The notes below the pieces were generated by a model. The model worked only from the letters and a program-made list of their open reading frames with translations, was not told where the DNA came from and searched no databases. The translations under genes and the position numbers were made by a program. A stretch of 64,000 nt of DNA from a virus (taxonomy: Duplodnaviria > Heunggongvirae > Uroviricota > Caudoviricetes): IMG/VR virus record IMGVR_UViG_2713896899_000007, positions 1-64,000 of that record; one strand, 5' to 3'. Below are positions 28,057-44,799 of this stretch, in pieces. Position 1 is the first letter of the stretch. Every line of letters begins with the position of its first letter.

Positions 28057-28721
28057 GCAGCCATCTCCCCGGAAGAGATCTTCTCCGCATATGCCACAAA
28101 TGCGTCTACCCCGCTTTCTCCCGTCATTTCTTCCATGTGGGCAAGCAAATCACCAACAACAATGGCAGAGCCAGCAGGGAGCGTTTTAAAGCCCAATACG
28201 TCGACAACACGTACTTCTTCCGCTGCAACTTCACGACTGATCTCGGTGTGTTCATCCTTCTGTCGTTTAGTTTCTTCGCCAAGATCGATAACTAGCGAGT
28301 CGGTGTCCATTTCTTCTGTCATACTGCCAACGAGAACATTCAACTCACGCTCTTCAAAGCCGAAAACCTCGATATCGTCCAGAACAAGCGACTCAAGCTC
28401 TTTCTGTAGCTTAATTGCATCGTAATCAATGCTGGCAAGTCGGTTATCTTCAAGGCGCTTCGCACGAACCTCGTCATCACTGAGATCATCGCGAACAATA
28501 ACCGGTACGCGCTCAAGTCCAGCAAAAATTGCAGCCTCACGGCGGCCGTGGCCAGTAATAATTACGTCGTTCTTATCGACCGTAATTGGCTGGTCAAATC
28601 CGCGCTTTTTAATGGCTGCGGCTAGATCTCGGATCTGCTGTTCATCATGCTTTTTGGCATTCATCTCATAGGGAATAAGATCTGCCGGGTCGCGATATAC
28701 GATTTCAAACTTTTTGGTCAT
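28053..28721 (-). CDS. ParB/Srx-fold (ParB-like nuclease domain) protein
   Basis: ITGHGRREAAIFAGLERVPVIV motif; start moved to MTKKFEIVY, which has an AAGGAG RBS. Confidence 0.7.
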   Translation of the reverse strand: MTKKFEIVYRDPADLIPYEMNAKKHDEQQIRDLAAAIKKRGFDQPITVDKNDVIITGHGRREAAIFAGLERVPVIVRDDLSDDEVRAKRLEDNRLASIDYDAIKLQKELESLVLDDIEVFGFEERELNVLVGSMTEEMDTDSLVIDLGEETKRQKDEHTEISREVAAEEVRVVDVLGFKTLPAGSAIVVGDLLAHMEEMTGESGVDAFVAYAEKISSGEMAA

Positions 28722-29401
28722 TACATACGCTCCTTGTAGTAGTCGACCAGCCACACCAGAGCCTCACCAGCGTTCTCCATTTCATTACCGGTGTTAATAG
28801 CCTGCTCTTTGATGATGTTTTTTATGGTTTCTGCAACACGATCTGACGCATCGAAAGTTACTTTGAAGCGCATGGTCTGATGTTCCGCACCCACACGTTC
28901 GGTTTTCTCCCGTTTGTCGGTATCGACAGGCTCATCACTACCACGAGACAACGCCTCCAGTGCTTCAAGGTCGATTGCCGCCTCTTTTGCTAAAACCATC
29001 GAGATTTCGTCGTCATACGGGGCGATTTCAGACAGTTGATAGTCAAGTTCTGACTGAATTTCTTCAATGAAGCGTTGCAATGCGATTTGGTCGTCTTCAC
29101 CGTATCGCTCGTTGTCCACCAGTGACATCTGTTTTGCCACGACATCGCTAATTTTGCCCACAGAAAGCACCGGAACCGTTGAAATTCCTTGCTCAATAGC
29201 AGCACGCCAGCGATGTTCGCCGCCGAGGATTTCAAAAAATCCATCTTCAAGTTCACGAGCCAAAATTGGCTTAAAAAAGCCCAATTTTTCGATAGAACCT
29301 TTCAGTTTTTCAAAATTCTGCGCACCAACCGAATTGGTGTTCCAGGTATTCGGGCGAAGGTTGGCAACATCAACCTGCAAAATCGTGATTTTTACATCCA
29401 T
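28721..29401 (-). CDS. ParB/Srx-fold (ParB-like nuclease domain) protein
   Basis: GGEHRWRAAIEQGISTVPVLSV motif; track start is GTG, moved to next ATG (MDVKITIL). Confidence 0.7.
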   Translation of the reverse strand: MDVKITILQVDVANLRPNTWNTNSVGAQNFEKLKGSIEKLGFFKPILARELEDGFFEILGGEHRWRAAIEQGISTVPVLSVGKISDVVAKQMSLVDNERYGEDDQIALQRFIEEIQSELDYQLSEIAPYDDEISMVLAKEAAIDLEALEALSRGSDEPVDTDKREKTERVGAEHQTMRFKVTFDASDRVAETIKNIIKEQAINTGNEMENAGEALVWLVDYYKERM

Positions 29402-29483
29402 TTTATTGCTACAATCCACTAAGTAACTGCTTACTTATTATAATAGCCAAATAACATACAAAAGGCACTAAGGAAAGAGGTTT

Positions 29484-31043
29484 ATGACTGTTCGGATTGT
29501 ATCTAACGCAGTTAATGCGCTTATTTCTGGCGCAGATGACAAGGTAAAGCAACTGGTGCAGCAAATGTTGAGCTACGAAGTCGAGACTGGCGACTGGAAG
29601 GGCACAAGCACGATGTTCAACTGGAGTAAAAACTCGTTCCCTGCTGGCTTTGCCAAGCCTGTAGCGGCGAACTTGAACAAGGCGGGCATCAAATGTGTTC
29701 ATATCCGCAAAGACAAAGCCCCGGCGCTTGGTAAACCAAATCCGGCGGTTAACCCATTCCCATACAATCCTGATTATGCGTATCAGGATCAGACTGTGGA
29801 AACACTGGTTCGAGAGGGAATGATGATTGCGCAGATCGCTACTGGTGGCGGGAAATCTAACGTTGCCTGCAAAGCAGCTGCACGTATCGGTCGAATGACA
29901 TTATTTTTAACAACCCGCTCTGTTCTGATGTTTCAAATGGCCGAAAACTTCCAGAGATCCATCGACTACCGCGCCGAAAATGGCGAACCGTGGTTAAAAG
30001 ACCAAAAGGTTGGAGTCATTGGCTCGGGTGAGTTCCAGGTATCACGACATATCAACGTCGCTACAGTTCAAACTCTTGCAAGTTTCCTCGAAGAACCACC
30101 ACGCGATGCAACACCAGATAAGAAAAGCTACCACCTCAAACGTCGGGAGTTGGTGAAACGCTTCCTTTCAAGTGTCTCTCTTCTTATTCTGGAAGAGGCG
30201 CATGAGTCTTCAGGCTCAAATTTCTATGACATCGCCAGATTATGTGTGAACGCAGACTATCGTCTGGCGCTTACAGCCACGCCGTTCATGAAGGATTCGA
30301 CGGAAGCCAACATGCGCCTGATGGCGGTGGCCGGGCGAATTGAAATTAAAGTCACAGAAAAGTACCTGATTGATCGAGGCATTCTGGCAAAGCCGTACTT
30401 CCTTTATCATAAAGTTGCCTACAAACCAGACGAGGCCAGAATCAAGGCAGAACTTGCCAACAAACACCTCAATTTTAGAGTAGGTATGAGTACTGCCTAC
30501 CAAAAGGCTTATCAGTTGGGGATCGTGTATAATTTGGGACGTAACGAGGCCATTGTTCGCGAAGCATTGCTCTATAAGCAACATTCTCTCAATTGTATGA
30601 CTCTGGTTCGCCTTAAACGCCACGGGCAAATCCTGATGGAAATGATGAAAGAGTCCGGCCTTAGAGTTGACTTCATCTATGGGGAATCTAACCAGGCGAC
30701 AAGGCAAGCAAAGCTGAACAGTTTAGCGTCTGGAGAAATAGATGTTTTAATAGGCTCGACTATTCTGGATGTCGGTGTTGATGTGCCAAGCGTTGGTGCG
30801 GTCATTCTTGCTGGTGGTGGGAAAGCAGAAGTTGAAATGAGGCAGCGTGTCGGTCGTGGCTTACGAGCCAAGAAGAATCAGGCAAACGTGTGTTTTATCA
30901 CTGATTTCATTGACACTAGCAACAAATACCTGTTGTCTCACTCTTATGAGCGAAAACACATCATCGACACCACACCTGGCTTTGCAGAAGGTGTATTGCC
31001 TATTGATGGCGCATTCGATTTTGGAGTTCTGAAACGAGATTAG
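29484..31043 (+). CDS. superfamily-2 DEAH-type helicase
   Basis: motif I ATGGGKS, motif II LEEAHE, motif III LTATP, motif VI QRVGRGLR. Confidence 0.75.
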   Translation: MTVRIVSNAVNALISGADDKVKQLVQQMLSYEVETGDWKGTSTMFNWSKNSFPAGFAKPVAANLNKAGIKCVHIRKDKAPALGKPNPAVNPFPYNPDYAYQDQTVETLVREGMMIAQIATGGGKSNVACKAAARIGRMTLFLTTRSVLMFQMAENFQRSIDYRAENGEPWLKDQKVGVIGSGEFQVSRHINVATVQTLASFLEEPPRDATPDKKSYHLKRRELVKRFLSSVSLLILEEAHESSGSNFYDIARLCVNADYRLALTATPFMKDSTEANMRLMAVAGRIEIKVTEKYLIDRGILAKPYFLYHKVAYKPDEARIKAELANKHLNFRVGMSTAYQKAYQLGIVYNLGRNEAIVREALLYKQHSLNCMTLVRLKRHGQILMEMMKESGLRVDFIYGESNQATRQAKLNSLASGEIDVLIGSTILDVGVDVPSVGAVILAGGGKAEVEMRQRVGRGLRAKKNQANVCFITDFIDTSNKYLLSHSYERKHIIDTTPGFAEGVLPIDGAFDFGVLKRD

Positions 31044-31045
31044 TT

Positions 31046-31324
31046 ATGAGCGAAAAGAAAACAACTTATTGCCAAGTGGCATTGTCTGATAAGGCCAATG
31101 AAAAACTTGGAAAATTTCAAATAAAACTCAAAGAGAAAAAAATCAAGATGTCTAAGGCTGAAGTTATCAATGCCATTCTGGAGACGATGACTATGGCTGA
31201 ATTTGACAAAGTCACATCTGCCGTTGGGGTTTCCGCTAAGACGCGTGAGAAAATCATGCGCATCTATGAAAACTCCAATATGACAAAAAAAGATCTAGAG
31301 GAAATACTGAGCAGGTTGCCGTAA
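31046..31324 (+). CDS. hypothetical small protein
   Basis: 92-aa ORF coupled to helicase stop. Confidence 0.4.
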   Translation: MSEKKTTYCQVALSDKANEKLGKFQIKLKEKKIKMSKAEVINAILETMTMAEFDKVTSAVGVSAKTREKIMRIYENSNMTKKDLEEILSRLP

Positions 31325-31389
31325 CATTTCATATTTACCCCCTATCAACTAATTCTATGATGTGCTCACTTGTTAGAAAGGAGCACATC

Positions 31390-31956
31390 ATGAGTTGGTT
31401 AAAAGAATTATCATTTGTTGACACCACTGGCGCTAAGAAAAATCATTCTTTCTGGAAAGTCAGCGATCCTTCTGATTTTCTTGTTGGTGCTAATGCTGCT
31501 TTTGAATTGCTTAACTTTTATCAACGTTATCCTGAAATGAAACACAGTCCACTCCTGTACAGAATAACAAACGATATGAATAGGTCTGGTTTATTATCAA
31601 GTGAGTCAGCGAAAGGCTTTTTTAGCAAAATTACGCCACACATATCATTCGATGCAGCAAACGAAATTGATTGTCTATCCACGAAACCTCAAGAACAATT
31701 ATCTGTACCACCTGAGAAAAAACAAAGACGAATTGCCAGCATTGAAAATATATCGAAAGAGCTTCGCACAACAACGTTGAGGCTGCTGAACTTTCTTACG
31801 CTACTTAATTGGATAGATGATCAAACATTGATTCCATCAACCGATGCGTTGGATAACAGAGTACTTAGGCTGAACAAAAAATCGCAATTTGGTTTTGTGT
31901 TCACCAAAAAAGGTGAAGATTTAATCAAAAGAAAATATAGATTATTGAATGATTAA
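31390..31956 (+). CDS. hypothetical protein
   Basis: start moved to MSWLKEL, which has an AAAGGAG RBS. Confidence 0.4.
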   Translation: MSWLKELSFVDTTGAKKNHSFWKVSDPSDFLVGANAAFELLNFYQRYPEMKHSPLLYRITNDMNRSGLLSSESAKGFFSKITPHISFDAANEIDCLSTKPQEQLSVPPEKKQRRIASIENISKELRTTTLRLLNFLTLLNWIDDQTLIPSTDALDNRVLRLNKKSQFGFVFTKKGEDLIKRKYRLLND

Positions 31957-32101
31957 TAGTCTACATGCAGGTGTATGAGAGCACCTGCATGTGATATTCA
32001 TCACATTTTTTGAAGTACACACCTCCGGCTGAAAAAATTTCTTGATTGGCAGAACGATATTTGTAGGCTTTTCAATTGATAACTAAGGTCGGATACTGTA
32101 G

Positions 32102-32590
32102 ATGAGTATTTCCATAAACAAAATAATTAACTCTTTACGACATAAAATATCACATGGAAAAGATGTTCTTTTTAAAGACAAATATTATCTATTCAACCTA
32201 GAGTTGTACAAATGCACAAAATTTTATATCACTCGGAACCGTAAATATTCAGCTTCAATCACAAAAGACATGAAGAAAATCTCTTCAGAAGAGTACTTCA
32301 TATCACATATTTATATCTACCCATTTAAATTAGAACCATTAAATATAATTCTTCCAACAATAAAAGGGGTTGAACTTGAAGGTTATACTTTAAGCTCTAA
32401 CTTTAATGATATGGGTGTACAAAAACCAGGGACAAGGTCATACTACGCCTACAAAGTAAAATGCAATAACTACAACGCACTTAACATGCTAATCAGCAAA
32501 CTTGAAACGGAGATAGTCGAAGGAAATCTAAATGATGATCATGAAAAATTAGAACAAATAGAAAAACTTAGAAAGTGTGATGTTAAATAA
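32102..32590 (+). CDS. hypothetical protein (very AT-rich gene)
   Basis: 162-aa ORF, Lys/Asn/Ile/Tyr-rich. Confidence 0.4.
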   Translation: MSISINKIINSLRHKISHGKDVLFKDKYYLFNLELYKCTKFYITRNRKYSASITKDMKKISSEEYFISHIYIYPFKLEPLNIILPTIKGVELEGYTLSSNFNDMGVQKPGTRSYYAYKVKCNNYNALNMLISKLETEIVEGNLNDDHEKLEQIEKLRKCDVK

Positions 32591-33205
32591 TTGGATTATC
32601 ATGATATGAAAATGAAAATTTCGTTACTCCTTGCTTGTATATGCCTCCCGGCGTTTTCCGCCAACGCATTATCAGATTTCGTCTCTGACATGCAAAAAAC
32701 GTACAGCATGTTTACCTCCGAAGACGTAGTAGAATACAAATCACGAGGTCTGAATCAGCCAGTTTGGTTCAGATTCTCAGACAACGCAGAAGAAACAATA
32801 CTTAATGGAGGAAAAGAAAGATTACGGTTGCAAATTAACGGGACCGCTGTACCAGAAAACGTTAATGTAAACTCTGACGAAGCCATGAAGCCATCTGGAA
32901 TTGTTTTAGAAGTTCAAGACGGCACACTTTACTGTGATGAAATGGCTACAACAGGTTGCCAAGTAAACATTAGGGTTGGCAATGAAGAGCCTATCGTTAC
33001 TTACGCCAAGGCTGAAGGGAATACAAGTGGAAAGGTATTGTTTATCGATGAAAATATCTCAAAACGTATCGTTCGTGACATACAGAAAACAGCTAACTCT
33101 AAATCCGTCGATAAAAAAATCTATGTTGAGGTTCCCTTCTTTGTCGTTGGTAACAAAGAATTTAAATTTGGGTTGCTGAAAACACCTCTAAGAGTATCAG
33201 AATGA
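32591..33205 (+). CDS. exported protein with N-terminal signal peptide
   Basis: MKMKISLLLACICLPAFSANA signal-like N-terminus; coupled to neighbours. Confidence 0.45.
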   Translation: MDYHDMKMKISLLLACICLPAFSANALSDFVSDMQKTYSMFTSEDVVEYKSRGLNQPVWFRFSDNAEETILNGGKERLRLQINGTAVPENVNVNSDEAMKPSGIVLEVQDGTLYCDEMATTGCQVNIRVGNEEPIVTYAKAEGNTSGKVLFIDENISKRIVRDIQKTANSKSVDKKIYVEVPFFVVGNKEFKFGLLKTPLRVSE

Positions 33206-33726
33206 GAACATTGGACATCACCTACGGCATACCGGCTGAAGTCTGGCCGCGAGACTACGAACATGCTGAAAACATACTTATGTTCTGGCGGAAGAACAAC
33301 ATTCCTGTAAGAGTCACGCTTGAAGACGGTCAGGTGTTTTGCATGTACGTTCAGGGGACAATGCCTTCCCGCAATAAGCTAGATTTATGCCCGCTTCCAT
33401 ATGATAAAGAAAATCGTATAAGACTCCCACTTGAGCGCATTAGCACAATTGAATCAGGTGTAATCGATGGCATTGCTCGCGAGTTCAAAGGTAGGCTAAC
33501 AATACATCCAGACTATGTTGACAATCAGCCATCACGCCGTGACTTTTTTGCGATATGTCGCAAGGCTTATCAAAACGACCAATCTATAAGGGTCTACATG
33601 GCAGACGGTCGTGAAATTGAAGGGGTGTCAAGAGGCGTTGATGCTTGCCAGGTCACTCTTAAGTTAGAAGACGGCAGAAAAATACTTGTTTTCTTCGATT
33701 GGGTTGAACGAATCCTTCCATTTTAA
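33202..33726 (+). CDS. hypothetical protein (two beta-rich repeat halves)
   Basis: 174-aa ORF overlapping upstream stop. Confidence 0.4.
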   Translation: MRTLDITYGIPAEVWPRDYEHAENILMFWRKNNIPVRVTLEDGQVFCMYVQGTMPSRNKLDLCPLPYDKENRIRLPLERISTIESGVIDGIAREFKGRLTIHPDYVDNQPSRRDFFAICRKAYQNDQSIRVYMADGREIEGVSRGVDACQVTLKLEDGRKILVFFDWVERILPF

Positions 33727-33739
33727 ATCTATAAGGGTA

Positions 33740-33768
33740 ATAACCGGCTAAGCCCGGTTATTATTTTA
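33740..33768 (+). terminator. rho-independent terminator-like hairpin
   Basis: AACCGG-CTAAG-CCCGGTT stem-loop followed by T-rich run. Confidence 0.5.
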
Positions 33769-34012
33769 CATGCCATTCATTTAAAACTCTTTCAATGCCA
33801 CTCTGTATAAATATATAAGGTTAAAGGCCCGAATTGATTATTTATTTAGGGAACACCTTCGACGATCTCGCTTTTATTTCTAGGACTTTCACCCCTGCAA
33901 AAAATTTAAAAAAAACACTTGCAATCTTTTTTCACGTATCGATAATTGAACTCGTCGAAAGCGAGCTGGCTAACGACAGTAAAAAATAAATTCATTTTAA
34001 TTTTTCGTAAGG

Positions 34013-34672
34013 ATGTCCATCATGGCTAACATTATCATTTCTAAAAAATCCATCATTGAAGCTGCTTCCATTGTATCCGATGAACTGCGCGAAAAAGCAG
34101 ATCTGGCAACTCAAACATATAACGAACATTATAAAAATGGTACGCACACTAAAGCAGACAAAGCAAATATGCAAGCTGCGACCACTAAACTTGCTTACTT
34201 CATCAACAACGTCGTAAACGCAGTAGAAGACGAAAAATTATGCTCTGTTTTCTACTATGCGATTAAAGCAAGCAAACAAGCGCCAGAAGTATTTTTCCGT
34301 GATGCTATGACTAATAGTTATTCACTGGAAAAACTGGTTTATCTGGTTAAATCCATTAAAGCTGGTAAATGCGTTTATTCCGTCGCTGATATGTCAGGAT
34401 CTCGTGTATTCGCTTTAATCGATATGATTAACGACGAGATCGACACGTTCACCAATGGCGCTGTTTTCGATTTAATGAATGAAGCTAAAAAAGCGTGCGA
34501 AATTAAATTGGACGCTGGCTATACTCAAGCCAACCAGTTGATCAATCTTTGCGAACGTCTCGGACTTGTTGAAAAAGTCAAAGGAGCTGGGAGCGCCAAA
34601 GCTGGTACGCAGCAATATCGCTTCATTAAAAATGATTTCTACAATTATTTAGCTGATGCTTTTAAAGCGTAA
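34013..34672 (+). CDS. hypothetical protein
   Basis: 219-aa ORF with TTGCAA-16-GATAAT promoter-like sequence upstream. Confidence 0.45.
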   Translation: MSIMANIIISKKSIIEAASIVSDELREKADLATQTYNEHYKNGTHTKADKANMQAATTKLAYFINNVVNAVEDEKLCSVFYYAIKASKQAPEVFFRDAMTNSYSLEKLVYLVKSIKAGKCVYSVADMSGSRVFALIDMINDEIDTFTNGAVFDLMNEAKKACEIKLDAGYTQANQLINLCERLGLVEKVKGAGSAKAGTQQYRFIKNDFYNYLADAFKA

Positions 34673-34683
34673 TTAATGAAATC

Positions 34684-34705
34684 AAGCGCCCACTATGGGC
34701 GCTTT
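34684..34705 (+). terminator. hairpin GCGCCCA-CTA-TGGGCGC (copy 1)
   Basis: perfect 7-bp stem, 3-nt loop, after the 219-aa gene. Confidence 0.5.
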
Positions 34706-34721
34706 AAAGGAGCTTTCAAAA

Positions 34722-34925
34722 ATGGTCAGCTATGACAAGATCCGCGCGGAATATCGCGCAAAGTATCGCGCTTATAAACTGGAATTAATCGACGATTTGA
34801 TCGCGCAACGCGACCAATTAAATTTTACGTTTTCTGATTTGCTTAACAGTAAACGAGATTGTAAGCGTAAGCGTGAATATTTACGTTTAAGCGCATTAAT
34901 CGGAAAACTTCAAAATTCTATTTAA
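34722..34925 (+). CDS. hypothetical small protein
   Basis: start moved to MVSYDKIR, which has an AAAGGAG RBS. Confidence 0.35.
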   Translation: MVSYDKIRAEYRAKYRAYKLELIDDLIAQRDQLNFTFSDLLNSKRDCKRKREYLRLSALIGKLQNSI

Positions 34926-34945
34926 TTTTTTTAAGGAGCTTAATC

Positions 34946-35173
34946 ATGGTTATTTTCATCTCTGGCGTAAATATCAATAATCATACTCTTGTTTATGATA
35001 TTGCTGGTTTAGCTGGATATGCTCTAAGTTCTGAAGTGGTTGATGAAACAACGTTTAAAATAAACATCAATGACGTAGAACATAGAGCGCGCGTAGGAAT
35101 CAATGAAGCTGATGTTACTTTAATGCTTCAAGAATTTTTAAACGCTGGCTTTAATATTCACTTAGAAAAATAA
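34946..35173 (+). CDS. hypothetical small protein
   Basis: 75-aa ORF with AAGGAG RBS. Confidence 0.4.
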   Translation: MVIFISGVNINNHTLVYDIAGLAGYALSSEVVDETTFKININDVEHRARVGINEADVTLMLQEFLNAGFNIHLEK

Positions 35174-35180
35174 AAACAAT

Positions 35181-35320
35181 AGCGCCCACTATGGGCGCTT
35201 TTTTCGTTTACAATACACCCACCATAACGCGCCAATAATGGCGCTTTTTTATTGTCTTTAACTCACTCCAACAACATAAAAATAAGCGCCAAAATAACGC
35301 CATAGACGCGCTTTTATATC
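35181..35320 (+). terminator. stack of three to four terminator-like hairpins
   Basis: GCGCCCACTATGGGCGC+T6, GCGCCAATAATGGCGC+T6, further GC hairpin with T-run. Confidence 0.55.
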
Positions 35321-35399
35321 CTTGTCAGTACATACCCATTACTTAACACATTAACGCGCTTAAAATGCGTTATATTGCGCTATAACGTATGGCTAATCA

Positions 35400-35785
35400 T
35401 TAATTTTTATTCTTGCTATGTGATCCGCGTTTAATTGTCGGCGCGGATCGGCATTTTGTTTTGTTCCGTATCCGCTCGCGTATTATGTGCGCGTGATTTT
35501 TCACATAATCACACCACTTAATCACGTATGTGATTATGCTACGAAAGAAATCTGGATGTCTCAGGCGACGAAAGTCATCATAATTTTCCCCGCTCACCTG
35601 TCCGACAACCGCTGGTTGGATTCCACCAGCTTCCCGATGTTTTTTCTACATAAAGGCGAATGCAGCCGTTTCCCGAAAAAATCCTGGCCGTTTCCCGTCG
35701 GCTCATGAATGCGTTCCTTGCCGTTTCTGAAAATTTCCCTGCGGCAGCTGGTGGCTATAGAGAAAGGGCCGTTTCTGGCCCTCTT
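35400..35785. promoter_or_regulatory. candidate origin/partition region: palindromes, DnaA-box-like 9-mers and iteron-like direct repeats (cluster 1)
   Basis: GATCCGCG...CGCGGATC palindrome; TGTGATTAT-like boxes; four or five GCCGTTTC(C/T) repeats spaced ~22-35 bp. Confidence 0.4.
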
Positions 35786-35790
35786 CTCAG

Positions 35791-36273
35791 TTACACGCCA
35801 TCAAGGATGTGGATGCGGTTGCTTGCGTATACATTCAGCATAAAGTTAGCGCAAAACAGTTTCCATGTATCAACGCCAGCGGTATACGTAATGTTTTTGC
35901 ATTTAATTGCATTGTTGGCGATCTGCGTAGCCAGTGATATGGCTTCATGGTCAGTAAAGCCGTATGACGTTTGGGTCTTCATCCAGACAGAAATCTGCGT
36001 AGCGAACTCAATCAGCTTGGACTGGCAGAATCGCCCGGAGCGCACCGGAAAGACGAACGTTCCGAATCCAGAATTTACCACATACGCTTTCTCAAATACC
36101 CGAGAGTAACGACGATTGCCAATGATGTCGCGTGCAATAATGCATTTTTCTTGTTCTGACAGTTCTACCGTCTCATTGTGACGCCAGGCACCAAGTACTC
36201 GTTTTTCAATGTCAGAGAACGTTACAGCGATATTGCCATGTGCGGGTGCGTTTACAGTAGCGATAAAATTCAT
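35791..36273 (-). CDS. hypothetical protein
   Basis: 160-aa ORF with AAGGAA RBS and motif B upstream. Confidence 0.45.
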   Translation of the reverse strand: MNFIATVNAPAHGNIAVTFSDIEKRVLGAWRHNETVELSEQEKCIIARDIIGNRRYSRVFEKAYVVNSGFGTFVFPVRSGRFCQSKLIEFATQISVWMKTQTSYGFTDHEAISLATQIANNAIKCKNITYTAGVDTWKLFCANFMLNVYASNRIHILDGV

Positions 36274-36478
36274 GATTAATTCCTTATCGTAAATAACAAA
36301 TTGTTTTCTTGTTGGCGTTAATTATCGTTGTACGAATAAGGCGTCAAAGTGGAAAGTTGCGGTAGCCGGACGGGAACAGGTGGGTTTGTCGGTTGCCTGG
36401 AGGTAAGAGGTTGGTGTTTTTAGCCTGCGGGGAACAGGATGGTCATTTAAGGCCACCAGCGTTAACTGGTGGCGTTTG

Positions 36479-37177
36479 TCATGCTGGAATCATATCTAAT
36501 TGAAAAGATTCCATTATATATGTTGGTTCATCGATGTAGTCCTTCAGCCTATTGTCAAATGACTCAAGCGGATTGTATGGCGGATGATGCCGCTCCGAGT
36601 ATTCATTTAAAAGATGCCCCATTATCAGTTCGATACCCATCTCTACTCCTGAAACTCCGAACCATACATTGTGCGTTAGTTGCTGGGCGTCTGTATCCAG
36701 TACGCGAACGCCATCAACAAGATTTATTAGATTCCTGTGGTTTTCGTGTACTGTAACCTCTCCGCTGGTTAAGTCTATTTCAGCGAGAAAATATGGTCTT
36801 TTGCTTCCGTCGGACTTTTTGAAATGACCGTCATAAGCGATAGCAAACCACGCTTTACTAAAGTCCTTGTTGGCGTAAGTGGTGCACATACAACTAGGAT
36901 AATCATCAATGTTAAACCAATCAGGAAACGGATCATCTTTAGACGAGCCAGCAAAATCATCAGCTAGTTCGTAGCTAATGTCTGGGTTGTACTTGCTGAC
37001 AAAATCATCTACATCCTCTACATCCTCAACACCTTTCCAAACTTTACATCTCTCCGACCAAAAGAATCTCGCAATATCCGAAATGACTGGGAAACGTTTT
37101 TCAATTGAATTTATCAACTCTGCATGTTCTTTAAGAGATTTACGCTTGTTGATAAGCTTCTGAAGATGCGTACTCAT
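36479..37177 (-). CDS. hypothetical acidic protein
   Basis: 232-aa ORF with motif B upstream. Confidence 0.45.
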   Translation of the reverse strand: MSTHLQKLINKRKSLKEHAELINSIEKRFPVISDIARFFWSERCKVWKGVEDVEDVDDFVSKYNPDISYELADDFAGSSKDDPFPDWFNIDDYPSCMCTTYANKDFSKAWFAIAYDGHFKKSDGSKRPYFLAEIDLTSGEVTVHENHRNLINLVDGVRVLDTDAQQLTHNVWFGVSGVEMGIELIMGHLLNEYSERHHPPYNPLESFDNRLKDYIDEPTYIMESFQLDMIPA

Positions 37178-37291
37178 TTTTAATTCCTCGTTTGTTTTTG
37201 ATGTGATAATTATCGCAGTCAGATTAAGGCAGAAAACAAATTGTTATCGGGCATAAGAAAATGGCGCGGTTTACGCGCCATTTAAAGAGGA

Positions 37292-37687
37292 TTAAGCGAA
37301 TACGCTTTCAGGGATTAAGGTGTCAGCAGGAATGCCGGAGGTAATACGCAGACCGTACTGACCAATCCAGGTGGTGCTGGTGTTCAGGCTGGAGGTGAAT
37401 ACGGAATTAACCATATTCATCATGGTTTCAAACACCTCTTCATCAACCTGGCGGAAGTAGTTCTCGATTTTCAGCAGCAGCGGGTCAGTTGCATCGAGAA
37501 TGGACTGGTATTGCGTCGCGTACTCGCCGCCGGAGGCATCACCTTTACGCACGATCGTACTGGCCTGTACTTCGGCACCAGTTTCGGTGTTGTACGTAAC
37601 AACGGTGATTTTTGCCACATTCTTACCTTCGGCGGTTTCAGAGGCATAGTAAACATCAACTGTCAGTTTTTCGCGTTTAACGGTCAT
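37292..37687 (-). CDS. hypothetical protein
   Basis: 131-aa ORF with motif A upstream. Confidence 0.45.
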   Translation of the reverse strand: MTVKREKLTVDVYYASETAEGKNVAKITVVTYNTETGAEVQASTIVRKGDASGGEYATQYQSILDATDPLLLKIENYFRQVDEEVFETMMNMVNSVFTSSLNTSTTWIGQYGLRITSGIPADTLIPESVFA

Positions 37688-37813
37688 TTCACTCTCCGTA
37701 GTGTCTTGGTTATTTTTCTATTTTATAGCCGTAAGTATGTACTTACAATACAAAAAAGCCCCGTAAGGATGGCGGGGCTGTCGTACTGTCGACTAATTAC
37801 CACTTGCACATTA

Positions 37814-38155
37814 TCAGGCTATTGCCATCACTGATGCTCTCTGAATTTCTTGTTGGGCCACGCGGTTAACTTCCATCAAAGCCAGTTCGAGCTGATGTTC
37901 CGGCCACATTCTTTGAAATGCCACCCAGCCTTTTCCACGCTGGCGACGAACATTCATTACATAACGAGTAAAGGTGTTTTTATCGAAAGACACCGCTGTT
38001 TCACGGAACAGACGAATAGAGGTTCCATTGGCAACGATGTCCAGCAAAGTTAATTGAGCAACTAGCGCAGGCTTCTCTTTTCGCTTCTGGTCTTTGTCCA
38101 GACCAAGAACCAATGATTTTTTCATCACAACTCCGTAAACAACTTGTTTTCTCAA
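37814..38155 (-). CDS. hypothetical protein (start possibly internal at MKKSLV)
   Basis: ORF with motif B at its 5' end. Confidence 0.4.
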   Translation of the reverse strand: MRKQVVYGVVMKKSLVLGLDKDQKRKEKPALVAQLTLLDIVANGTSIRLFRETAVSFDKNTFTRYVMNVRRQRGKGWVAFQRMWPEHQLELALMEVNRVAQQEIQRASVMAIA

Positions 38156-38278
38156 TGGCGTAAATAATACCAGTAAGAAAACGGCTACAAAGCATAATGA
38201 TCAGGTGCATGATCGATATGCAGGTTCCTCCCTGCGGCTATAGAGAAATTAAGCCAGCATTGCTGGCTTTGGTTGAGG

Positions 38279-38608
38279 TTACGCGAATACTTCAAGAAAC
38301 TCCTGAACGTCCCAATGCTGGACAAGGTGAAGATAGACCTTAGAAATCACGTCATTCTCGCTATCGCATGTGAAGTAGTACTTCTGGCTGCGGTTGTATG
38401 TGTCCACACAAAATTCGCTCATATCCATAAAGTCAGCATCTTCTCCCATGTCGCAAATCATCAAAGCAGGTGCGTCATCACGAGTCATCAGCTCAAGCAC
38501 CCACCGCGAATTGATCAGAGTGGAAGACCAACCTTCCAGCTCACAGAACTGGTCAAACTCTTTTTGAGTCAATTTCTTAATTTGGTTGATGTCGATATGT
38601 GCAAACAT
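38279..38608 (-). CDS. hypothetical protein
   Basis: start moved to second Met (TAAGGAT RBS); the track ATG lies inside the conserved motif B leader. Confidence 0.4.
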   Translation of the reverse strand: MFAHIDINQIKKLTQKEFDQFCELEGWSSTLINSRWVLELMTRDDAPALMICDMGEDADFMDMSEFCVDTYNRSQKYYFTCDSENDVISKVYLHLVQHWDVQEFLEVFA

Positions 38609-38959
38609 AAAGCAATCCTTAAACAACATGTTTTCTTATTGGTGTTATTATCGCAATAACGCACAGGCGAAAAAGGATTTTATTCCGGTGAATGTGGTTT
38701 TGGCAGTGAGTTTTCAGGTTCAGTACCGAGTACACTTTTTACATTATTCTGATTTAGTGGCCGAAGATGGCTGGTGGGCAGAATAATCCTCTCCCCGAAA
38801 ACCTACTGAAATCGATTGTGACCCGCTGGCTGTCTGGCACAATTACGCTGTAGCTGGGCATTCAGAGGGAATCCAGCGGTAAGTTCGCCTGCACGTGAGC
38901 GCCTCTCTTCTTACCGCACATTACAGGTGGGTAGCCGCAACTCTCCCTCACGCTATACC

Positions 38960-39105
38960 GGTACGCCACCGTTCCTGAACCGGCATCGAGCCTTTTCCCG
39001 AAATCCACACAGGCAACTCTACCGTTTCCCTGAAAATCCCCAGCCGTTCCCCGAAGGCAACCCAGCCGTTTCTGTAGCGGGATGCAGCCTTTCCCTGTAT
39101 GGACC
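38960..39105. repeat. iteron-like direct repeats (cluster 2), about six copies at ~22-bp spacing
   Basis: CCGTTTCCCTGAAAATCCCCAG / CCGTTCCCCGAAGGCAACCCAG / CCGTTTCTGTAGCGGGATGCAG and flanking variants. Confidence 0.55.
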
Positions 39106-40176
39106 GAAGGCTGACCGTAGGGGTGTTACGGGGGATAAAATCAGGAGTTGAATAAATACGAAAAAGGAGGCGACACCCCTACTTCCCTCTCCACTTATAC
39201 ATACCAGGCTTCTTCGCTATACATGTTGTGTTTTCTTCGTGTTTTATCTGTCTCAACCTCTCTATAGGCGTTAATGCTCACTCCTACCAGAACGTTCTAT
39301 ACGGCGACTATTTCTGTTGGTGGATTAGGTGTGTTGTTTTCTCTGTCGGTGTATGTGGTTTCGTTCGTTTTGCGGTGGTTCTTCTATGGGGTGTTCTCGT
39401 CGTTTTGGTGATTGTTCTTCTCCGTATATGGAGTAATGGCAGGTGGGCGATTGCTTTCGTTATTGTGTTTGAGTTGTTTGTCTGGAGTGTGTGAAAGGCT
39501 TTTGTAGTTATTCGTGTATTGGGTAATGGCGTTTCCCGTGATTGTTATGTTTCGTGTCTTTTGGGATTGAGAGAAACCTTGCGGTTACAGGCTTCGTTGG
39601 GGTTTCAGTGATTCTGGTGTTTCTTCGCTGTTTGGGGAATGGCGTGTCGTGGGTATCGCGCGTGTGAATGTTTTCGGATTGCCTGTGAAAGTTAGGTTGG
39701 TTATCCGGTAGCCTGGGAAGAAGAGGTGGGTCTTTTCGGTAGCCTGCCATAAAGAGGTTGGTTGTTTTTGGGAATGGCATGTGTGTTATTTAGTTGTTTT
39801 GTTATGCCTGAAAATAAGTTGTTTATATGGTTGTGTAACGCAACGGGAGCGATTTTGAGCGTGTGTTTTTGTTGGTAGTGTGTTGAGTCGTCTGTGGTGA
39901 AAATTGGACGCTGTGGAGCTGTCTGCTGCGTAGGATTACGGGTATAAGAAGTGATGTGTGAAAACGTCAATTTTTTAGACCAAATCGGGAGAAAGCGTTG
40001 ATGTTTCGTTGATCTGTTATTTAGTTGTTTTCTTATTGGTATAAACAACTGTAACCTATTGATATTTAAGGATGTGATTGCAGGCATGGAAGGGGAGTAG
40101 TGGCGATCAACGGATTCTTATAGAAAAGAATCAAATTGTGACCGCCATTATCAACGGTTTGAATATGTTTGCAGAT

Positions 40177-40476
40177 TTACCAGTTCCAGCACTCAAGCCC
40201 TTCAACGACCGGCGCACCACAATCAAAATGTACAGAGTCAAAGCCTACATCAAGTACTTTCTGAATGTTAGCAATCGCGCCTTCGGATATACCATATCGA
40301 CGCAAGTCGTCTTTCCAGACATCATCCTGTAACCCGGCGTGGACAATACAACCGCCATCAATTTGTGAAACCCAATCCAGCTCATTGCTTGCGATCATGA
40401 ATCGGCGAGCATCTTCCTCTGATGTATGAGATGAACTGATCAATGCCACCTGGTAGGCTTGGGTAATGTTCAACAT
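40177..40476 (-). CDS. hypothetical protein
   Basis: track start is GTG; moved to next ATG, which has a GGAG RBS; motif B upstream. Confidence 0.35.
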   Translation of the reverse strand: MLNITQAYQVALISSSHTSEEDARRFMIASNELDWVSQIDGGCIVHAGLQDDVWKDDLRRYGISEGAIANIQKVLDVGFDSVHFDCGAPVVEGLECWNW

Positions 40477-40539
40477 TTCAACCACTCCAAAACAAGTTGT
40501 TTTCTTATGTGGCTTATTATCTCTAACAACAAAAGGCAG

Positions 40540-40690
40540 AAAACAAATTGTTTTAGGTACTGTGTAAATCAGAAGGGATTGTGTCTATATGAAAATGCCC
40601 GGCGTGTTGCCGGGCATTGCGAAGAGAGGTTGTTTAATTACTTAACCTGGTGGCCAGGTTTAGCACCGGCATCCGGCTGCAGGATGGGAG
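40540..40690. repeat. direct repeat copy 1: diverged duplicate of metG 3' end (last ~12 codons plus stop), terminator hairpin and motif B; att-like
   Basis: about 85 percent identical to 41398-41550 over ~150 bp. Confidence 0.6.
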
Positions 40691-41367
40691 GTTACGTTCG
40701 CGCTATGTTGATATTCTGATTGACGCCATTTGTGCCAAATCATCTCCTTATAGGATTCATATTGCGTTCGGTACTCTGGCTTCAAGTCAGATATGCCTTT
40801 ATTCACTACCGCTCGTACGTTTACTAATAATTCGTGCTCAATGCCTTTACTCTCTAAATATTCTACAACACCAGCATCGGGGCCAATTGCCCTGCCGTTA
40901 AAGACCATTTCCAGCATAAGCTCTGTTTCAGCAAAATAGATAGGTGAGGAACCAGGTGCACACAGCTTAATAGCAGTAAGATTGTCCAACAGGTCGGCCA
41001 ATTTAATCATTCGCGTCTGCATATCCAACGTCTTTTGCAATTCGCGAACATTAATAATGAATCTCGCAAGACTATCGCCGTCGTCTGGTTTGGCAACGTT
41101 TGCCAGCGCCAGTACCATCTCAGCTACACGATTCCCGAAATACTCGCGTACCATTTCGATAGTGATATGGGTATCTTCAATAACACCATGTAATAATGCA
41201 GCAGCCTGCATTTCGACAGTGCCTCCGTGCCAAGCAACAATCTCACGCACAGAAACTGGGTGTGTAACGTAGTCTTCCCCCGTATATCTACGCTTCTTAC
41301 CTACACCACCATACACTCCAACGGCAAACATATGAGCTTTATCAACAATCGACATAATTTGCTCCAT
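40660..41367 (-). CDS. SpoT/Rel-type HD-domain hydrolase paralogue, HG variant of the HD motif, chimeric C-terminus
   Basis: HPVSVREIV...ALLHGVIEDT...MIKLADLLDN; 3' end reads into the metG-derived repeat in another frame. Confidence 0.55.
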   Translation of the reverse strand: MEQIMSIVDKAHMFAVGVYGGVGKKRRYTGEDYVTHPVSVREIVAWHGGTVEMQAAALLHGVIEDTHITIEMVREYFGNRVAEMVLALANVAKPDDGDSLARFIINVRELQKTLDMQTRMIKLADLLDNLTAIKLCAPGSSPIYFAETELMLEMVFNGRAIGPDAGVVEYLESKGIEHELLVNVRAVVNKGISDLKPEYRTQYESYKEMIWHKWRQSEYQHSANVTSHPAAGCRC

Positions 41368-41397
41368 TATTTTGTTAATACTGTTACTCTAACTGAT

Positions 41398-41550
41398 AAT
41401 AGAACGCAGAAAACAAATTGTTTTAGGGGCTGAGTAAATCAGAAGGGATTGCGTCTATATGAAAATGCCCAGCAATACGCTGGGCATTGTGAAGAATGGT
41501 TGTTTAGTTACTTAACTTGGTGGCCTGGTTTAGCACCAGCATCCGGGCTT
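41398..41550. repeat. direct repeat copy 2, overlapping the true 3' end of metG
   Basis: homologous to 40540-40690. Confidence 0.6.
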
Positions 41551-43541
41551 AACAGGAAGATATCTTTCCCGCCGGGGCCAGCAGCCATCACCATGCCTTC
41601 GGAGATACCGAAGCGCATTTTACGCGGAGCCAGGTTAGCCACCATAATTGTGTGACGACCAATCAGTGCCTGTGGGTCTGGATAAGCAGAACGGATGCCT
41701 GAGAAGACATTACGCTTTTCACCACCGAGATCCAGTGTCAGGCGCAACAGTTTGTCAGAACCTTCAACAAACTCCGCGTTTTCAATCAGCGCCACACGCA
41801 GGTCAACTTTGGCGAAGTCGTCAAAGGTGATGGTTTCCTGAATCGGGTCGTCAGCCAGTGGGCCAGTAACTGGCGCGGCAGTAGCTTTCACTTCTTCTTT
41901 GGATGCTTCCACCAGTGCTTCCACCTGTTTCATATCGATACGGTTATACAGTGCCTTGAACGGATTCACTTTATGGCCCAGCAGCGGTTGCTGGATACCA
42001 TCCCAGGTCAGTTCTGTATTCAGGAATGCTTCTGCACGTTCAGTCAGTTTCGGCAGTACCGGTTTCAGATACGTCATCAGCACGCGGAACAGGTTAATGC
42101 CCATAGAGCAAATCGCCTGCAGATCTGCATCGCGACCTTCCTGCTTCGCCACCACCCACGGAGCCTGTTCATCGACATAGCGGTTAGCCAGGTCAGCCAA
42201 TGCCATGATTTCACGGATAGCTTTACCAAATTCGCGGCTTTCCCATGCTTCGCCAATCACTTCAGCGGCATCAGTAAAGGTTTTGTACAGTTGCGGGTCA
42301 GCCAGTTCGCTTGCCAGCACGCCGTCAAAACGCTTGTTGATAAAGCCTGCATTACGGGAGGCCAGGTTAACCACTTTGTTAACAATATCGGCATTCACTC
42401 GCTGAACGAAATCCTCCAGGTTGAGATCGATATCATCAATGCGCGAAGAGAGTTTCGCAGTGTAGTAGTAACGCAGGCTGTCAGCGTCAAAATGATTCAG
42501 CCAGGTGCTGGCTTTAATAAAGGTGCCGCGAGACTTGGACATCTTCGCACCGTTCACCGTCACATAGCCATGAACAAACAGGTTGGTCGGCTTGCGGAAG
42601 TTGCTGCCTTCCAGCATGGCAGGCCAGAACAGACTGTGGAAGTAAACGATATCTTTACCGATGAAGTGGTACAGCTCGGCGGTGGAGTCTTTCTTCCAGT
42701 ATTCATCGAAGCTGGTGGTATCGCCGCGCTTGTCGCACAGATTCTTGAAGGAACCCATGTAGCCAATCGGTGCGTCCAGCCAGACGTAGAAATATTTACC
42801 CGGCGCGTTCGGAATTTCAAAACCGAAGTAAGGTGCGTCGCGGGAGATATCCCACTGTTGCAGACCAGATTCAAACCACTCCTGCATTTTGTTTGCCACC
42901 TGCTCCTGCAACGCACCGCTGCGGGTCCATGCCTGCAACATTTCGCTGAAAGAGGGCAGATCAAAGAAGAAGTGTTCAGAATCACGCATTACCGGGGTAG
43001 CACCAGAAACCACCGATTTCGGCTCGATCAGTTCAGTCGGGCTGTAGGTCGCGCCACAAACTTCACAGTTATCGCCGTATTGATCTGGCGCTTTACATTT
43101 CGGGCAGGTGCCTTTCACAAAACGATCCGGCAGGAACATGCCTTTTTCCGGGTCGTACAACTGAGAGATAGTGCGGTTTTTAATAAAACCGTTCTCTTTC
43201 AGGCGAGTATAAATAAGCTCAGACAGCTGGCGGTTCTCTTCGCTGTGCGTCGAGTGATAGTTGTCATAGCTGATGTTAAAGCCTGCGAAATCAGTCTGGT
43301 GTTCCTGACTCATTTCGCCAATCATCTGCTCCGGTGTGATACCAAGTTGCTGTGCTTTCAGCATGATCGGCGTACCGTGGGCATCGTCGGCACAGATGAA
43401 ATTAACCTCGTGGCCGCGCATTCGCTGGTAACGAACCCAGACATCAGCCTGGATGTGCTCCAGCATATGGCCGAGGTGGATTGAGCCGTTAGCGTACGGC
43501 AGCGCGCACGTCACCAGAATTTTCTTCGCGACTTGGGTCAT
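41508..43541 (-). CDS. metG: methionyl-tRNA synthetase (host gene)
   Basis: 677-aa product with HIGH-type motif ([11 protein letters not shown]) and KMSKS; near-identical to enterobacterial MetG from MTQVAKK; the longer track ORF is an upstream in-frame extension. Confidence 0.95.
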
Positions 43542-43698
43542 AGTAGGCATTACTTCTTTGTAGTGAAAAGGGGCTTGATAGTAACAAAATGGCCTTATGT
43601 CTGCCATGTGATAACAGCATTTCTCATAAATGATTAAATGTCGTAGCTGGAGTACACTACAAGGCGACAATTGCGCAAATTAAAATAAAGGAGACGGG

Positions 43699-44799
43699 AT
43701 GAGCGAGTCCAAATCGCCGGATGCCCTGAGAGCAATGGTAGCCGGTACGCTGGCTAATTTTCAGCACCCAACCCTGAAACACAACCTGACTACGCTTAAA
43801 GCGTTACACCATGTTGCGTTGATGGATGACACACTGCATGTCGAACTAATCATGCCTTTCGTGTGGAATAAGCCTTTTGAAGACCTGAAAGAGCAATGTA
43901 GTGGTGATCTGCTCCGTATCACTGGCGCAAAGGCTATTGACTGGAAGCTGTCGTACAACATTGCCACGCTTAAGCGCGTCAAAAACCAACCAGGCATTAA
44001 TGGTGTTAAGAATATTATCGCCGTAAGCTCAGGCAAGGGCGGTGTAGGCAAATCGTCCACAGCAGTAAACTTGGCACTGGCGTTGGCTGCTGAAGGTGCG
44101 AAAGTTGGTATTTTGGATGCCGATATCTACGGGCCATCAATACCAACCATGCTGGGCGCGGAAAACCAACGTCCAACCTCACCGGACGGTACTCACATGG
44201 CACCTATCATGTCTCATGGCCTGGCAACCAATTCAATTGGCTATCTGGTCACCGACGACAATGCAATGGTGTGGCGTGGACCGATGGCCAGCAAGGCGCT
44301 GATGCAGATGTTGCAGGAAACACTGTGGCCTGATCTGGACTATCTCGTTCTCGATATGCCGCCGGGCACTGGTGATATTCAGTTGACGCTGGCGCAGAAC
44401 ATTCCTGTAACTGGTGCGGTTGTGGTAACTACGCCGCAAGACATCGCGCTGATCGATGCGAAGAAAGGCATTGTGATGTTCGAAAAAGTCGAAGTGCCAG
44501 TACTGGGTATCGTTGAAAACATGAGTGTGCATATTTGCAGTAACTGCGGTCATCACGAGCCAATTTTTGGCACCGGTGGCGCACAGAAACTGGCCGAGAA
44601 ATACAACACGCAGTTGTTAGGCCAAATGCCACTTCATATCTCTCTTCGTGAAGATCTGGATAACGGAACACCAACCGTTATTAGTCGTCCAGATAGTGAA
44701 TTTACGGCTATTTATCGTGACCTCGCAGATCGCGTTGCTGCCCAAATGTATTGGCAAGGTGAAGTAATACCTGGCGAAATCGCATTCCGCGCAGTGTGA
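43699..44799 (+). CDS. apbC: Fe-S cluster carrier ATPase ApbC/Mrp (host gene)
   Basis: deviant Walker A SGKGGVGKS and CxxC motif; divergent from metG as in E. coli. Confidence 0.95.
   Translation: MSESKSPDALRAMVAGTLANFQHPTLKHNLTTLKALHHVALMDDTLHVELIMPFVWNKPFEDLKEQCSGDLLRITGAKAIDWKLSYNIATLKRVKNQPGINGVKNIIAVSSGKGGVGKSSTAVNLALALAAEGAKVGILDADIYGPSIPTMLGAENQRPTSPDGTHMAPIMSHGLATNSIGYLVTDDNAMVWRGPMASKALMQMLQETLWPDLDYLVLDMPPGTGDIQLTLAQNIPVTGAVVVTTPQDIALIDAKKGIVMFEKVEVPVLGIVENMSVHICSNCGHHEPIFGTGGAQKLAEKYNTQLLGQMPLHISLREDLDNGTPTVISRPDSEFTAIYRDLADRVAAQMYWQGEVIPGEIAFRAV

Follow-up and report, generated by a model that had tools for sequence, protein, structure and literature searches.

Centromeres of type Ib and type II partition systems, as exemplified by parC1/parC2 of pB171, parC of R1, parC of pSK41 and parH of TP228, consist of short direct repeats on a helical lattice, sometimes distributed over two clusters, to which small RHH proteins, the activators of a ParA or ParM motor, bind cooperatively. 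Such centromeres are usually found directly at the par promoter, for which they also act as operator. In the linear phage-plasmid N15 (SopAB), the centromere sites are located far from the par operon among phage genes, and they are single palindromic sites of a type Ia SopB. The locus described in this study shares features of both. As in the type Ib and type II systems, it contains short direct repeats on a helical lattice, in an element that also encodes a ParA and a small RHH-like protein as a gene pair, and, as in N15, the candidate sites reside in a phage-plasmid at a location remote from the par operon. It differs from the former by the distance of about 41 kb between its two arrays and the par genes, by the unrelated cargo that the arrays flank and by an asymmetric core of 12-14 bp recurring every 22-33 bp, whose binding is putative, and from the latter by the organization of its sites as arrays of asymmetric direct repeats. 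Most likely, both arrays are cis-acting, helically phased putative protein-binding sites with a part in the plasmid maintenance, and not the phage functions, of the phage-plasmid and, with a confidence that stays somewhat below even, we interpret them as remote bipartite centromere-like sites of its ParA/RHH-like system, comparable to parC1/parC2.

The window, by which we refer to the entire stretch of 64,000 nucleotides that was analysed, is identified by its matches as a portion of an SSU5/pHCM2-type phage-plasmid of about 110 kb. This assignment is based on the region of about 4.1 kb around the repeats, which shows 99.3% identity to the E. coli plasmid p009_B (NZ_CP048306.1, where record position 72244 corresponds to window position 35300) and 96% identity to the phage Cyrano (pLF82), which matches Klebsiella phage-plasmids more weakly and from which the Salmonella phage SSU5 was also reached in a more sensitive search. 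Nearly all genes are directed leftward, on the minus strand, with the exception of a block of 5.7 kb (29484-35173), which is read rightward and thus converges on cluster 1. The element carries its own replication genes, encoding a helicase, a primase, Pol III alpha, RecA, RNase H and a UvsW-type helicase, and a plasmid copy number of about 5.5 was reported in strain LF82 (PMC9928086). The actual plasmid replicon is located about 37 kb outside the window, where it spans the record origin of p009_B. It encodes a RepA of the RepB/RepFIB type with iterons of the sequence GTATGCTGYCAGCGGT, four upstream and 12 downstream of repA, with GATC repeats and DnaA-box-like sequences alongside, and it is recognizable as a complete P1/RepFIB-like replicon, whose repeats are unrelated to both arrays, as no sequence is shared between the array units and the iterons. 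The features of the locus are listed below in window coordinates:

35181-35199, 35229-35244, 35421-35450 and 35477-35493, plus strand: three or four tandem terminator-like hairpins closing the rightward operon (scored within 35181-35493)
35660-35745, plus strand: array 1 (cluster 1), three or four units aGCC(G/T)TT(T/C)CC at 35665-35745 on an 11-bp lattice
35752-35781, minus strand: intrinsic terminator of the 160-aa gene, consisting of a hairpin (35766-35781) and a T-tract
35791-38629, minus strand: five small genes (160, 232, 131, 103 and 116 aa), all provided with a promoter/leader cassette of their own
36357-36444, plus strand: B repeats, set 1, with GGTAGCCnG-N6-8-A(A/G)AGGTGGGT present three times, upstream of the promoter that serves the 160-aa gene
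38963-39101, plus strand: array 2 (cluster 2), six units aGCC(G/T)TT(T/C)CC at 38969-39101
39102-39185, no strand assigned: conserved junction (GGACCGAAGGCTGACCGTAGGGGTGTTACGGGGGATAAAA...) that closes with a terminator-like hairpin and its T-run on the minus strand (hairpin 39165-39180)
39200-39940, no strand assigned: untranslated strand-asymmetric region of 0.75 kb, with 40% T, 31% G, 16% A and 14% C on the plus strand
39703-39763, plus strand: B repeats, set 2, two copies
39942-39970, minus strand: leftward promoter-like element 1, -35 TTGACG (39970-39965), 17-nt spacer, -10 TTATAC (39947-39942)
40013-40047, minus strand: leftward promoter-like element 2, a promoter/leader cassette read from sequence

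The six units of array 2 are defined by cores of the pattern CC[GT]TT[TC]C on the plus strand (38969, 38991, 39022, 39044, 39066 and 39088) at spacings of 22/31/22/22/22 bp, in line with the first-pass annotation, which had described about six repeats in the same orientation at intervals of about 22 bp. In cluster 1, the same pattern is found on the plus strand at 35666, 35688, 35721 and 35769, with initial spacings of 22 and 33 bp, and the array is composed of aGCCGTTTCCC at 35665 and 35687 and GCCGTTTCTG at 35720, with degenerate units at about 35710 (GCGTTCC) and 35733 (TTTCCCTGCGG). All cores of both clusters thus share one strand, as had been stated, and the earlier count of four or five repeats in cluster 1 is lowered to three or four, since the core at 35769 constitutes the loop of the terminator hairpin GGGCC-GTTTCT-GGCCC (35766-35781) and is not an array unit. 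Compiled from 167 sequences, the unit reads a(C/T)C(C/T)(a/g)G-CC(G/T)TT(T/C)C-CC, with a weak G-A-A-A after it. The units are asymmetric, and a TTTC...GAAA arrangement with a spacer of 1-3 nt is found in some of them only. The densest 150 bp of the window contains six cores compared to a maximum of three in 300 Markov-1 simulations, and five pairs are separated by exactly 22 bp where 0.007 would be expected. In both clusters, T[TC]CC recurs with a periodicity of 10.5-11 bp (power 6.1-6.2 compared to a shuffle 95th percentile of 3.2-3.4), so that the spacings of 22, 31 and 33 bp correspond to whole helical turns and the proposed iteron-like anatomy, with direct repeats phased at about two turns, is sustained.

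The repeats are also not conserved protein-coding sequence, as among relatives the arrays differ in length by whole units (22 or 53 bp), and many indels to the right of array 2 are not multiples of three. RefSeq annotation is absent at the arrays and over 38.63-40.18 kb, the few ORFs that other records place there do not agree, and of the 40 plasmid records listed for the cluster 2 region, out of 835 matching, nearly all carry no annotation under it. The repeats are therefore real, non-coding and far beyond chance. Position-weight-matrix and 7-mer array scans of about 110 kb revealed no third array, the RepA iterons being the sole other arrays, and a dispersed regulon was rejected since the position-weight-matrix scan gave no further strong sites. 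A scan of IMG/VR with the exact pattern of two phased units returned mostly chance matches, and a reading of GCTGGTGG inside array 1 as Chi site was abandoned, as the sequence is not strictly conserved and changes to GTTGGTGG in SSU5 and to ACTGGTGG in pMT1.

Both arrays are located at sites of transcription termination. The first-pass annotation had described a 15-bp element recurring at about 35752 and 38235; the recurrence is genuine, although the match covers 13 nt (GGCTATAGAGAAA, at 35752-35764 and 38236-38248), and both copies constitute the T-tract side of two paralogous minus-strand terminators. The first of them terminates the 160-aa gene, and its stem co-varies from GGGCC/GGCCC to GGGGC...GCCCC in SSU5, Klebsiella and pMT1. 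The palindrome GATCCGCG...CGCGGATC, previously noted upstream of cluster 1, scores at 35421-35450 as one of several tandem intrinsic terminators on the plus strand. These rightward terminators, which have similar counterparts in pMT1 and the relative L139, shield array 1 from rightward transcription. With the hairpin at 39165-39180, array 2 is, too, placed just past the end of a leftward transcription unit. Each array hence occupies a pocket bounded by terminators just past the end of such a unit, and the pocket of array 1 is promoter-free and lies between convergent terminators.

None of the five genes enclosed by the arrays shows a match in Pfam. Four of the five match PHROG families of unknown function only and the 232-aa gene matches none, and for the 160-aa protein a confident predicted model found no match to a known fold. 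The cargo between the arrays varies by relative, the arrays of 63 viral contigs being 2.9-4.5 kb apart, and in a Moellerella relative both arrays are present without the 160-aa gene. The B repeats also occur in two sets, and the distance of set 2 from array 2 is about equal to the distance of set 1 from array 1.

The same core and phasing are found in relatives from E. coli, Salmonella, Klebsiella, Enterobacter, Citrobacter, Cronobacter, Yersinia and Moellerella, with exactly two arrays per genome, each just past the terminator of a leftward transcription unit, the exception being Yersinia pMT1, where cluster 2 has been lost along with neighbouring DNA and array 1 has been kept. Both arrays are present in Cyrano, PhiR41_1, CMS-2020a, SSU5, three Klebsiella phages, plasmids of Citrobacter, Enterobacter and Cronobacter and 63 IMG/VR contigs, and equally in a distant Klebsiella lineage, where the identity of the 160-aa protein drops to 33%, and in a phage-plasmid of Moellerella (Morganellaceae). 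Array 1 is conserved in SSU5, Klebsiella, pMT1, L139 and Moellerella, and the cluster 2 region is found in 835 PLSDB plasmids. Both arrays are kept in four plasmids, now 52-62 kb in size, that were reduced independently of each other (Cronobacter, 51.6 kb; E. ludwigii, 61 kb; E. coli, 52 kb; E. albertii, 62 kb). For three of them (Cronobacter, E. coli and E. albertii), it was confirmed that structural and packaging genes are lost and that RepA and the pair of ParA and a 117-aa protein are kept; the E. ludwigii plasmid was read over 10.5 kb only. The literature searched contains no description of these repeats, nor of a centromere, lytic origin or pac site of SSU5/pHCM2-type phage-plasmids, and the arrays thus appear undescribed in these sources.

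The par pair, located outside the window (p009_B 31877-32904), encodes a 222-aa ATPase of the ParA/MipZ type, which matches MipZ/CbiA/AAA_31 in Pfam and 'ParA-like partition protein' in PHROG, and downstream of it the 117-aa protein (p009_B locus GZS17_RS24770), which combines a basic N-terminal tail with an RHH-like core and whose Moellerella homologue matches RHH_1 with a weak, sub-threshold E-value of 0.035. Within about 300 bp upstream of the par operon and in the flank read downstream of it, no array-like unit was found in three lineages, which leaves its centromere unaccounted for and makes the arrays the only candidate repeat centromere of a par system that would otherwise be an orphan. 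The putative DNA-reading strand IKSRTxSxEDE of the 117-aa protein is invariant between E. coli, the distant Klebsiella lineage (55% identity) and Moellerella (32%), and the array core CCGTTTCCCGAAA is unchanged in the same lineages. The protein is found in 797 plasmids from the same genera as the cluster 2 region (835), Yersinia being absent from the genera listed, and pMT1 lacks both the protein pair and cluster 2. This co-distribution, together with the co-retention of arrays and par genes in the reduced plasmids (arrays in four of four, of which three are confirmed with RepA and the par pair), suggests that the arrays serve plasmid maintenance, on evidence that we grade as moderate. The insulation of both arrays from transcription by bounding terminators and the copy number of about 5.5 are also consistent with a centromere. 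We infer a partition function and the identity of the binding protein from such comparisons. The partition site that had been among the initial proposals is in this way favoured, although for the ParA/RHH-like pair outside the window and not for the ParB-like proteins that had been named.

Several observations stand against a centromere. The arrays are far from the operon that would act on them, and in all three lineages the par promoter contains no array-like unit. The RHH assignment is based on a sequence pattern and one sub-threshold Pfam match, and an asymmetric core of 12-14 bp at a spacing of 22 bp exceeds most RHH sites. Moreover, pMT1 retains array 1 despite lacking the 117-aa protein, the retention in reduced plasmids may reflect linkage within the same segment of about 10 kb, and the tight conserved coupling of array 2 to the neighbouring G+T-skewed, promoter-bearing region is left unexplained. 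If the arrays are a centromere, dimers of a small RHH-type protein, for which the 117-aa protein is the candidate, would coat one face of the DNA at intervals of 2-3 turns and thereby build a partition complex, and the basic N-terminal tail would stimulate the ATPase activity of ParA, which would in turn segregate a plasmid prophage of about five copies. The flanking terminators would stop RNA polymerase from stripping this complex.

The skewed region next to array 2, which ends at the hairpin at 39165-39180, is the most unusual feature at the locus. With a G+T fraction of 0.746, compared to 0.50 +/- 0.03, it contains the 500 bp of strongest skew in the sequences that were scanned (L003 and the window), and the skew is held at 0.70-0.75 in all lineages despite identities down to about 67%. 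It carries four GG(G/T)AATGGC(G/A) motifs (at about 39432, 39522, 39635 and 39770), and both leftward promoter-like elements (39942-40050) read into it. These elements were recognized by reading the sequence and are not listed by a consensus promoter scan, and the bases around both hexamers of element 1 are invariant in eight genomes. For CYRAN_103, an ORF annotated on the C/A-rich strand, expression in the LF82 lysogen lies at the floor of detection (PMC9928086). Rfam contained nothing relevant in 33000-42000, and plus-strand RNA of 38940-39960 is less stable than its shuffles (-289.5 compared to -322.9 +/- 8.6), for which reason the complementarity of array units with GGGTAATGGC motifs is not evidence of structure. 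A CsrA sponge was dropped, as by eye the GGA motifs are inconsistent and located outside loops, an Hfq sponge was rejected, as A-R-N tracts are not enriched compared to shuffles, and both an ancient duplication of a whole module and a degraded remnant of the 160-aa gene within the skewed region were discarded since the similarity is found at the motif level only, with no tblastn match.

It is this region that gives weight to the main rival explanation, in which the locus would be a lytic-cycle replication origin or origin enhancer whose arrays would bind a putative phage initiator, with R-loop or D-loop initiation in the skewed region and array 1 as distant second cis site. Bipartite or iteron-bearing phage origins are known from P4, with its ori and crr, and from T4, where oriE combines iterons with a primer transcript. 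The present locus resembles these systems by the occurrence of the same short motif in two clusters kilobases apart and by early promoters, an untranslated transcript and adjoining small early genes, and it differs by having no known initiator, no unwinding element and by its retention in non-phage derivatives. The iteron-like phasing of the units, the extreme and preserved skew, the position of array 2 next to 0.75 kb of non-coding DNA with invariant leftward promoter hexamers and a terminator, the expression of this region at the floor in a lysogen, as should be the case for a lytic element, and the replisome genes of the element, including RNase H and the UvsW-type helicase, would all suit such an origin. 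However, no initiator gene was identified, and neither an AT-rich unwinding element nor a DnaA box is found, array 1 resides in its promoter-free pocket between convergent terminators, and both arrays are intact in four plasmid-only derivatives that are incapable of forming virions (with gene loss shown for three). Finally, the transcript from the conserved promoters would be C/A-rich and not of the G-rich kind that favours R-loops. We regard a lytic origin as the main alternative, though an unlikely one. Somewhat less probable still is that array 2 and the skewed region form one unit, either a new type of R-loop/D-loop lytic origin or a dual-use locus whose protein array would function in partition in the plasmid state and as origin or in replication control in the lytic state. 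If true, the strand asymmetry would be the footprint or a functional requirement of a strand that repeatedly becomes single-stranded, and phage-plasmids carrying their own replisome would possess a new type of origin.

Improbable is also a role of the arrays as parS-like loading or binding sites of ParB_N (CTPase-type) proteins in segregation, condensation or silencing. Two such proteins are encoded at 28053-29419, beside two ABC-like ATPases and 6 kb from array 1, one of them with a GxxRxxA-like motif (GGEHRWRAA), and they are conserved in every array-bearing lineage including pMT1 and Moellerella. The units contain GTTTC(C), in some cases as GTTTC-CC-GAAAC, which resembles the arms of chromosomal parS and of Noc sites and P1 box A, a likeness that provides a lead and not a test. 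With ParB proteins of solved structure, homology extends over the N-terminal domain only and stops before the DNA-binding domain, and the DNA-binding specificity can therefore not be deduced. Moreover, the asymmetric units, with their TTTC...GAAA spacer of 1-3 nt, do not form the 16-bp parS palindrome, and the 51.6-kb Cronobacter plasmid, where one ParB-like gene is deleted and the other truncated, is maintained with both arrays.

Slightly more doubtful is a function as transcription insulators or roadblocks that would stop or regulate read-through past leftward terminators at the borders of the small-gene block. While such a function would match the location of both arrays directly past minus-strand terminators and a solitary unit-like TTCCTCCCTGCGG after a third terminator (38222-38269), other leftward terminators in the window (e.g. 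40590-40630) are found without such units, six phased sites far exceed the needs of a roadblock and no regulator was identified.

A packaging site, with the arrays as pac- or cos-like sites of a small terminase or as borders of terminal repeats, is very improbable. The core CGTTTCC is shared with the R sites of lambda cosB, to which gpNu1 binds, and two arrays of the same orientation around small genes of the early type recall the repeat arrays beside the terminal repeats of T7 and T5. Yet the terminase genes (24143-26031) are 10-13 kb away from the arrays, TerL is of the T4-like Terminase_6 type and not lambda gpA-like, and the putative small subunit (TerS-like, 210 aa) shows no similarity to a gpNu1 sequence. 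The arrays also persist after the loss of packaging genes, with loss of TerS and truncation of TerL tested directly in one derivative, and viral-contig ends do not pile up at the arrays. These ends cluster about 5 kb from them, matching the distance of a host-derived metG-apbC segment, and they were rejected as proxy for virion ends, since they probably reflect assembly breaks.

The plasmid-type origin proposed initially, in which the arrays would be iterons flanking their initiator gene, has the 22-bp phasing and the two clusters around a gene block in its favour and recalls the P1/RepFIB replicon (incC - repA - incA), where two direct-repeat sets phased at about 22 bp bracket genes, but it is already largely refuted, as the replicon of this type sits elsewhere in the element and uses GTATGCTGYCAGCGGT, pMT1 replicates without cluster 2, the cargo between the arrays differs among relatives and the arrays come without Rep gene, DnaA box or unwinding element. 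A Rep initiator gene was found neither beside nor between the arrays by Pfam, PHROG and fold searches. The 9-mers that had been likened to DnaA boxes do not hold up, with no box of at most one mismatch near the clusters and counts of three and six at two mismatches, close to the expected 1.7 and 4.2, and the AT-rich stretches noted upstream of cluster 1 do not amount to an unwinding element, the richest 40-mer near either cluster containing 77.5% A+T. The choice between origin and centromere offered at the outset still frames the right short list, with the plasmid-origin version being rejected and the centromere version favoured.

Collectively, our study rejects the repeats as replication origin of the plasmid and suggests that they most likely serve a partition protein as docking sites. 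Phage-plasmids of the SSU5/pHCM2 type count among the most frequent large plasmids in E. coli, Klebsiella, Salmonella and Enterobacter and they spread resistance genes, and their maintenance has so far been described by replicon typing alone (IncFIB(pHCM2)). In this respect, a defined and deeply conserved pair of cis-sites provides a target for work on stability, incompatibility and curing, and the arrays give a handle for telling plasmid from phage functions in these hybrids. They could also explain why shrunken derivatives that are no longer phages retain this segment. If the interpretation as centromere is true, the locus would be a clear case of a repeat-array centromere that is located far from its par genes.

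The untranslated stretch to the right of array 2, one of the two phased direct-repeat clusters of this phage-plasmid, is conserved and stands out by the extreme strand asymmetry of its base composition. On the plus strand, T accounts for 40% and G for 31% of the bases between 39200 and 39940, and their combined content peaks at 0.75, exceeding the mean of the scanned sequences by about 7-8 s.d. Between E. coli and Moellerella it is this skew, more than the sequence itself, that has been conserved. The region, delimited by a terminator and by leftward promoter hexamers that do not vary, shows no expression in the LF82 lysogen, which carries the phage-plasmid Cyrano. The following repeats are found in the skewed region and to the right of array 1:

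39432-39445, 39522-39535, 39635-39648 and 39770-39782: GG(G/T)AATGGC(G/A), four copies inside the skewed region
36357-36444: GGTAGCCnG-N6-8-A(A/G)AGGTGGGT, second conserved repeat family, three copies
39703-39763: the same family, two copies

Each GG(G/T)AATGGC(G/A) copy is preceded by a TTCTTCTCCGTGTATGG-like sequence, and the motifs are kept in all lineages, with the distant Klebsiella lineage containing the form GGGTGATGGC. They look similar to array units in inverted orientation that carry two fixed mismatches. The two sets of the second family are each found on the right of one array, at a distance of about 700 bp, an arrangement that makes the array 1 and array 2 loci look like paralogous modules. 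The skewed region has also remained intact in a 52-kb reduced E. coli derivative, despite an insertion next to array 2 which cost the array at most its first unit while leaving the other five intact:

CP057431.1 (locus L206), 39774-41741: IS100, directly left of array 2

Two sets of genes with partition-type or ATPase features are located away from the arrays, the first of them outside the window in the related E. coli plasmid p009_B (NZ_CP048306.1):

p009_B record 31877-32904 (locus L003): ParA/MipZ-type ATPase of 222 aa and, just downstream, an RHH-like protein of 117 aa
26504-29419: conserved set of four genes, for ABC-like ATPases of 296 and 221 aa and ParB_N-domain proteins of 233 and 232 aa

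The 117-aa protein carries a basic N-terminal tail and is conserved to at least 90% between E. coli and Klebsiella. Taken together, its gene and that of the ATPase resemble a type Ib partition cassette without adjacent repeats. The four-gene set adjoins the terminase genes, and in the reduced Cronobacter plasmid just an N-terminal ParB fragment of it remains. Upstream of the TerS-like gene, two further elements overlap or abut each other:

26115-26237: large AT-rich inverted repeat with 51-nt arms
26225-26491: 88-aa ORF

The product of this ORF has a winged-helix-like look, with a weak match to LexA_DNA_bind (E = 0.07), and the two elements could constitute the actual pac region, or else a late regulator.

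The TerS-like and ParA-like genes are among many minus-strand genes that share a near-palindrome in their promoter-leader region:

26072, 38137, 38621, 40490, 40541, 41411, 45349, 54046 and 54775, and p009_B 32940-32960: AAAACAAnTTGTTTT (context AAGAAAACAAnTTGTTT)

At every site inspected by eye, the near-palindrome lies downstream of the -10 element and ahead of the Shine-Dalgarno sequence, and it has the look of an operator or leader element through which a single regulator acts genome-wide. An intergenic cassette of about 120 bp, composed of a terminator hairpin and this palindromic candidate operator, is found at 40500-40650 and again at 41380-41510, in each case after one of two successive minus-strand genes. 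The long ORFs at the window's left end contain tandem repeats of 120 bp and 99 bp (613-950, 1276-1680 and 4791-4999); one of these ORFs is annotated in p009_B as a phage tail protein.

The phage-plasmid also carries full-length host-type genes, metG (methionyl-tRNA synthetase) and apbC/mrp (41508-44799), which are probably the cause of the breaks in metagenome contigs about 5 kb from the arrays. A 174-aa protein encoded at 33202-33726 strongly matches the Pfam family Flag1_repress (E = 5e-81), the family of the phase-1 flagellin repressor FljA. This protein is conserved in the Salmonella phage SSU5, the Yersinia relative pMT1 and the reduced plasmids, and may be a lysogenic-conversion factor that acts on the flagellin of the host.
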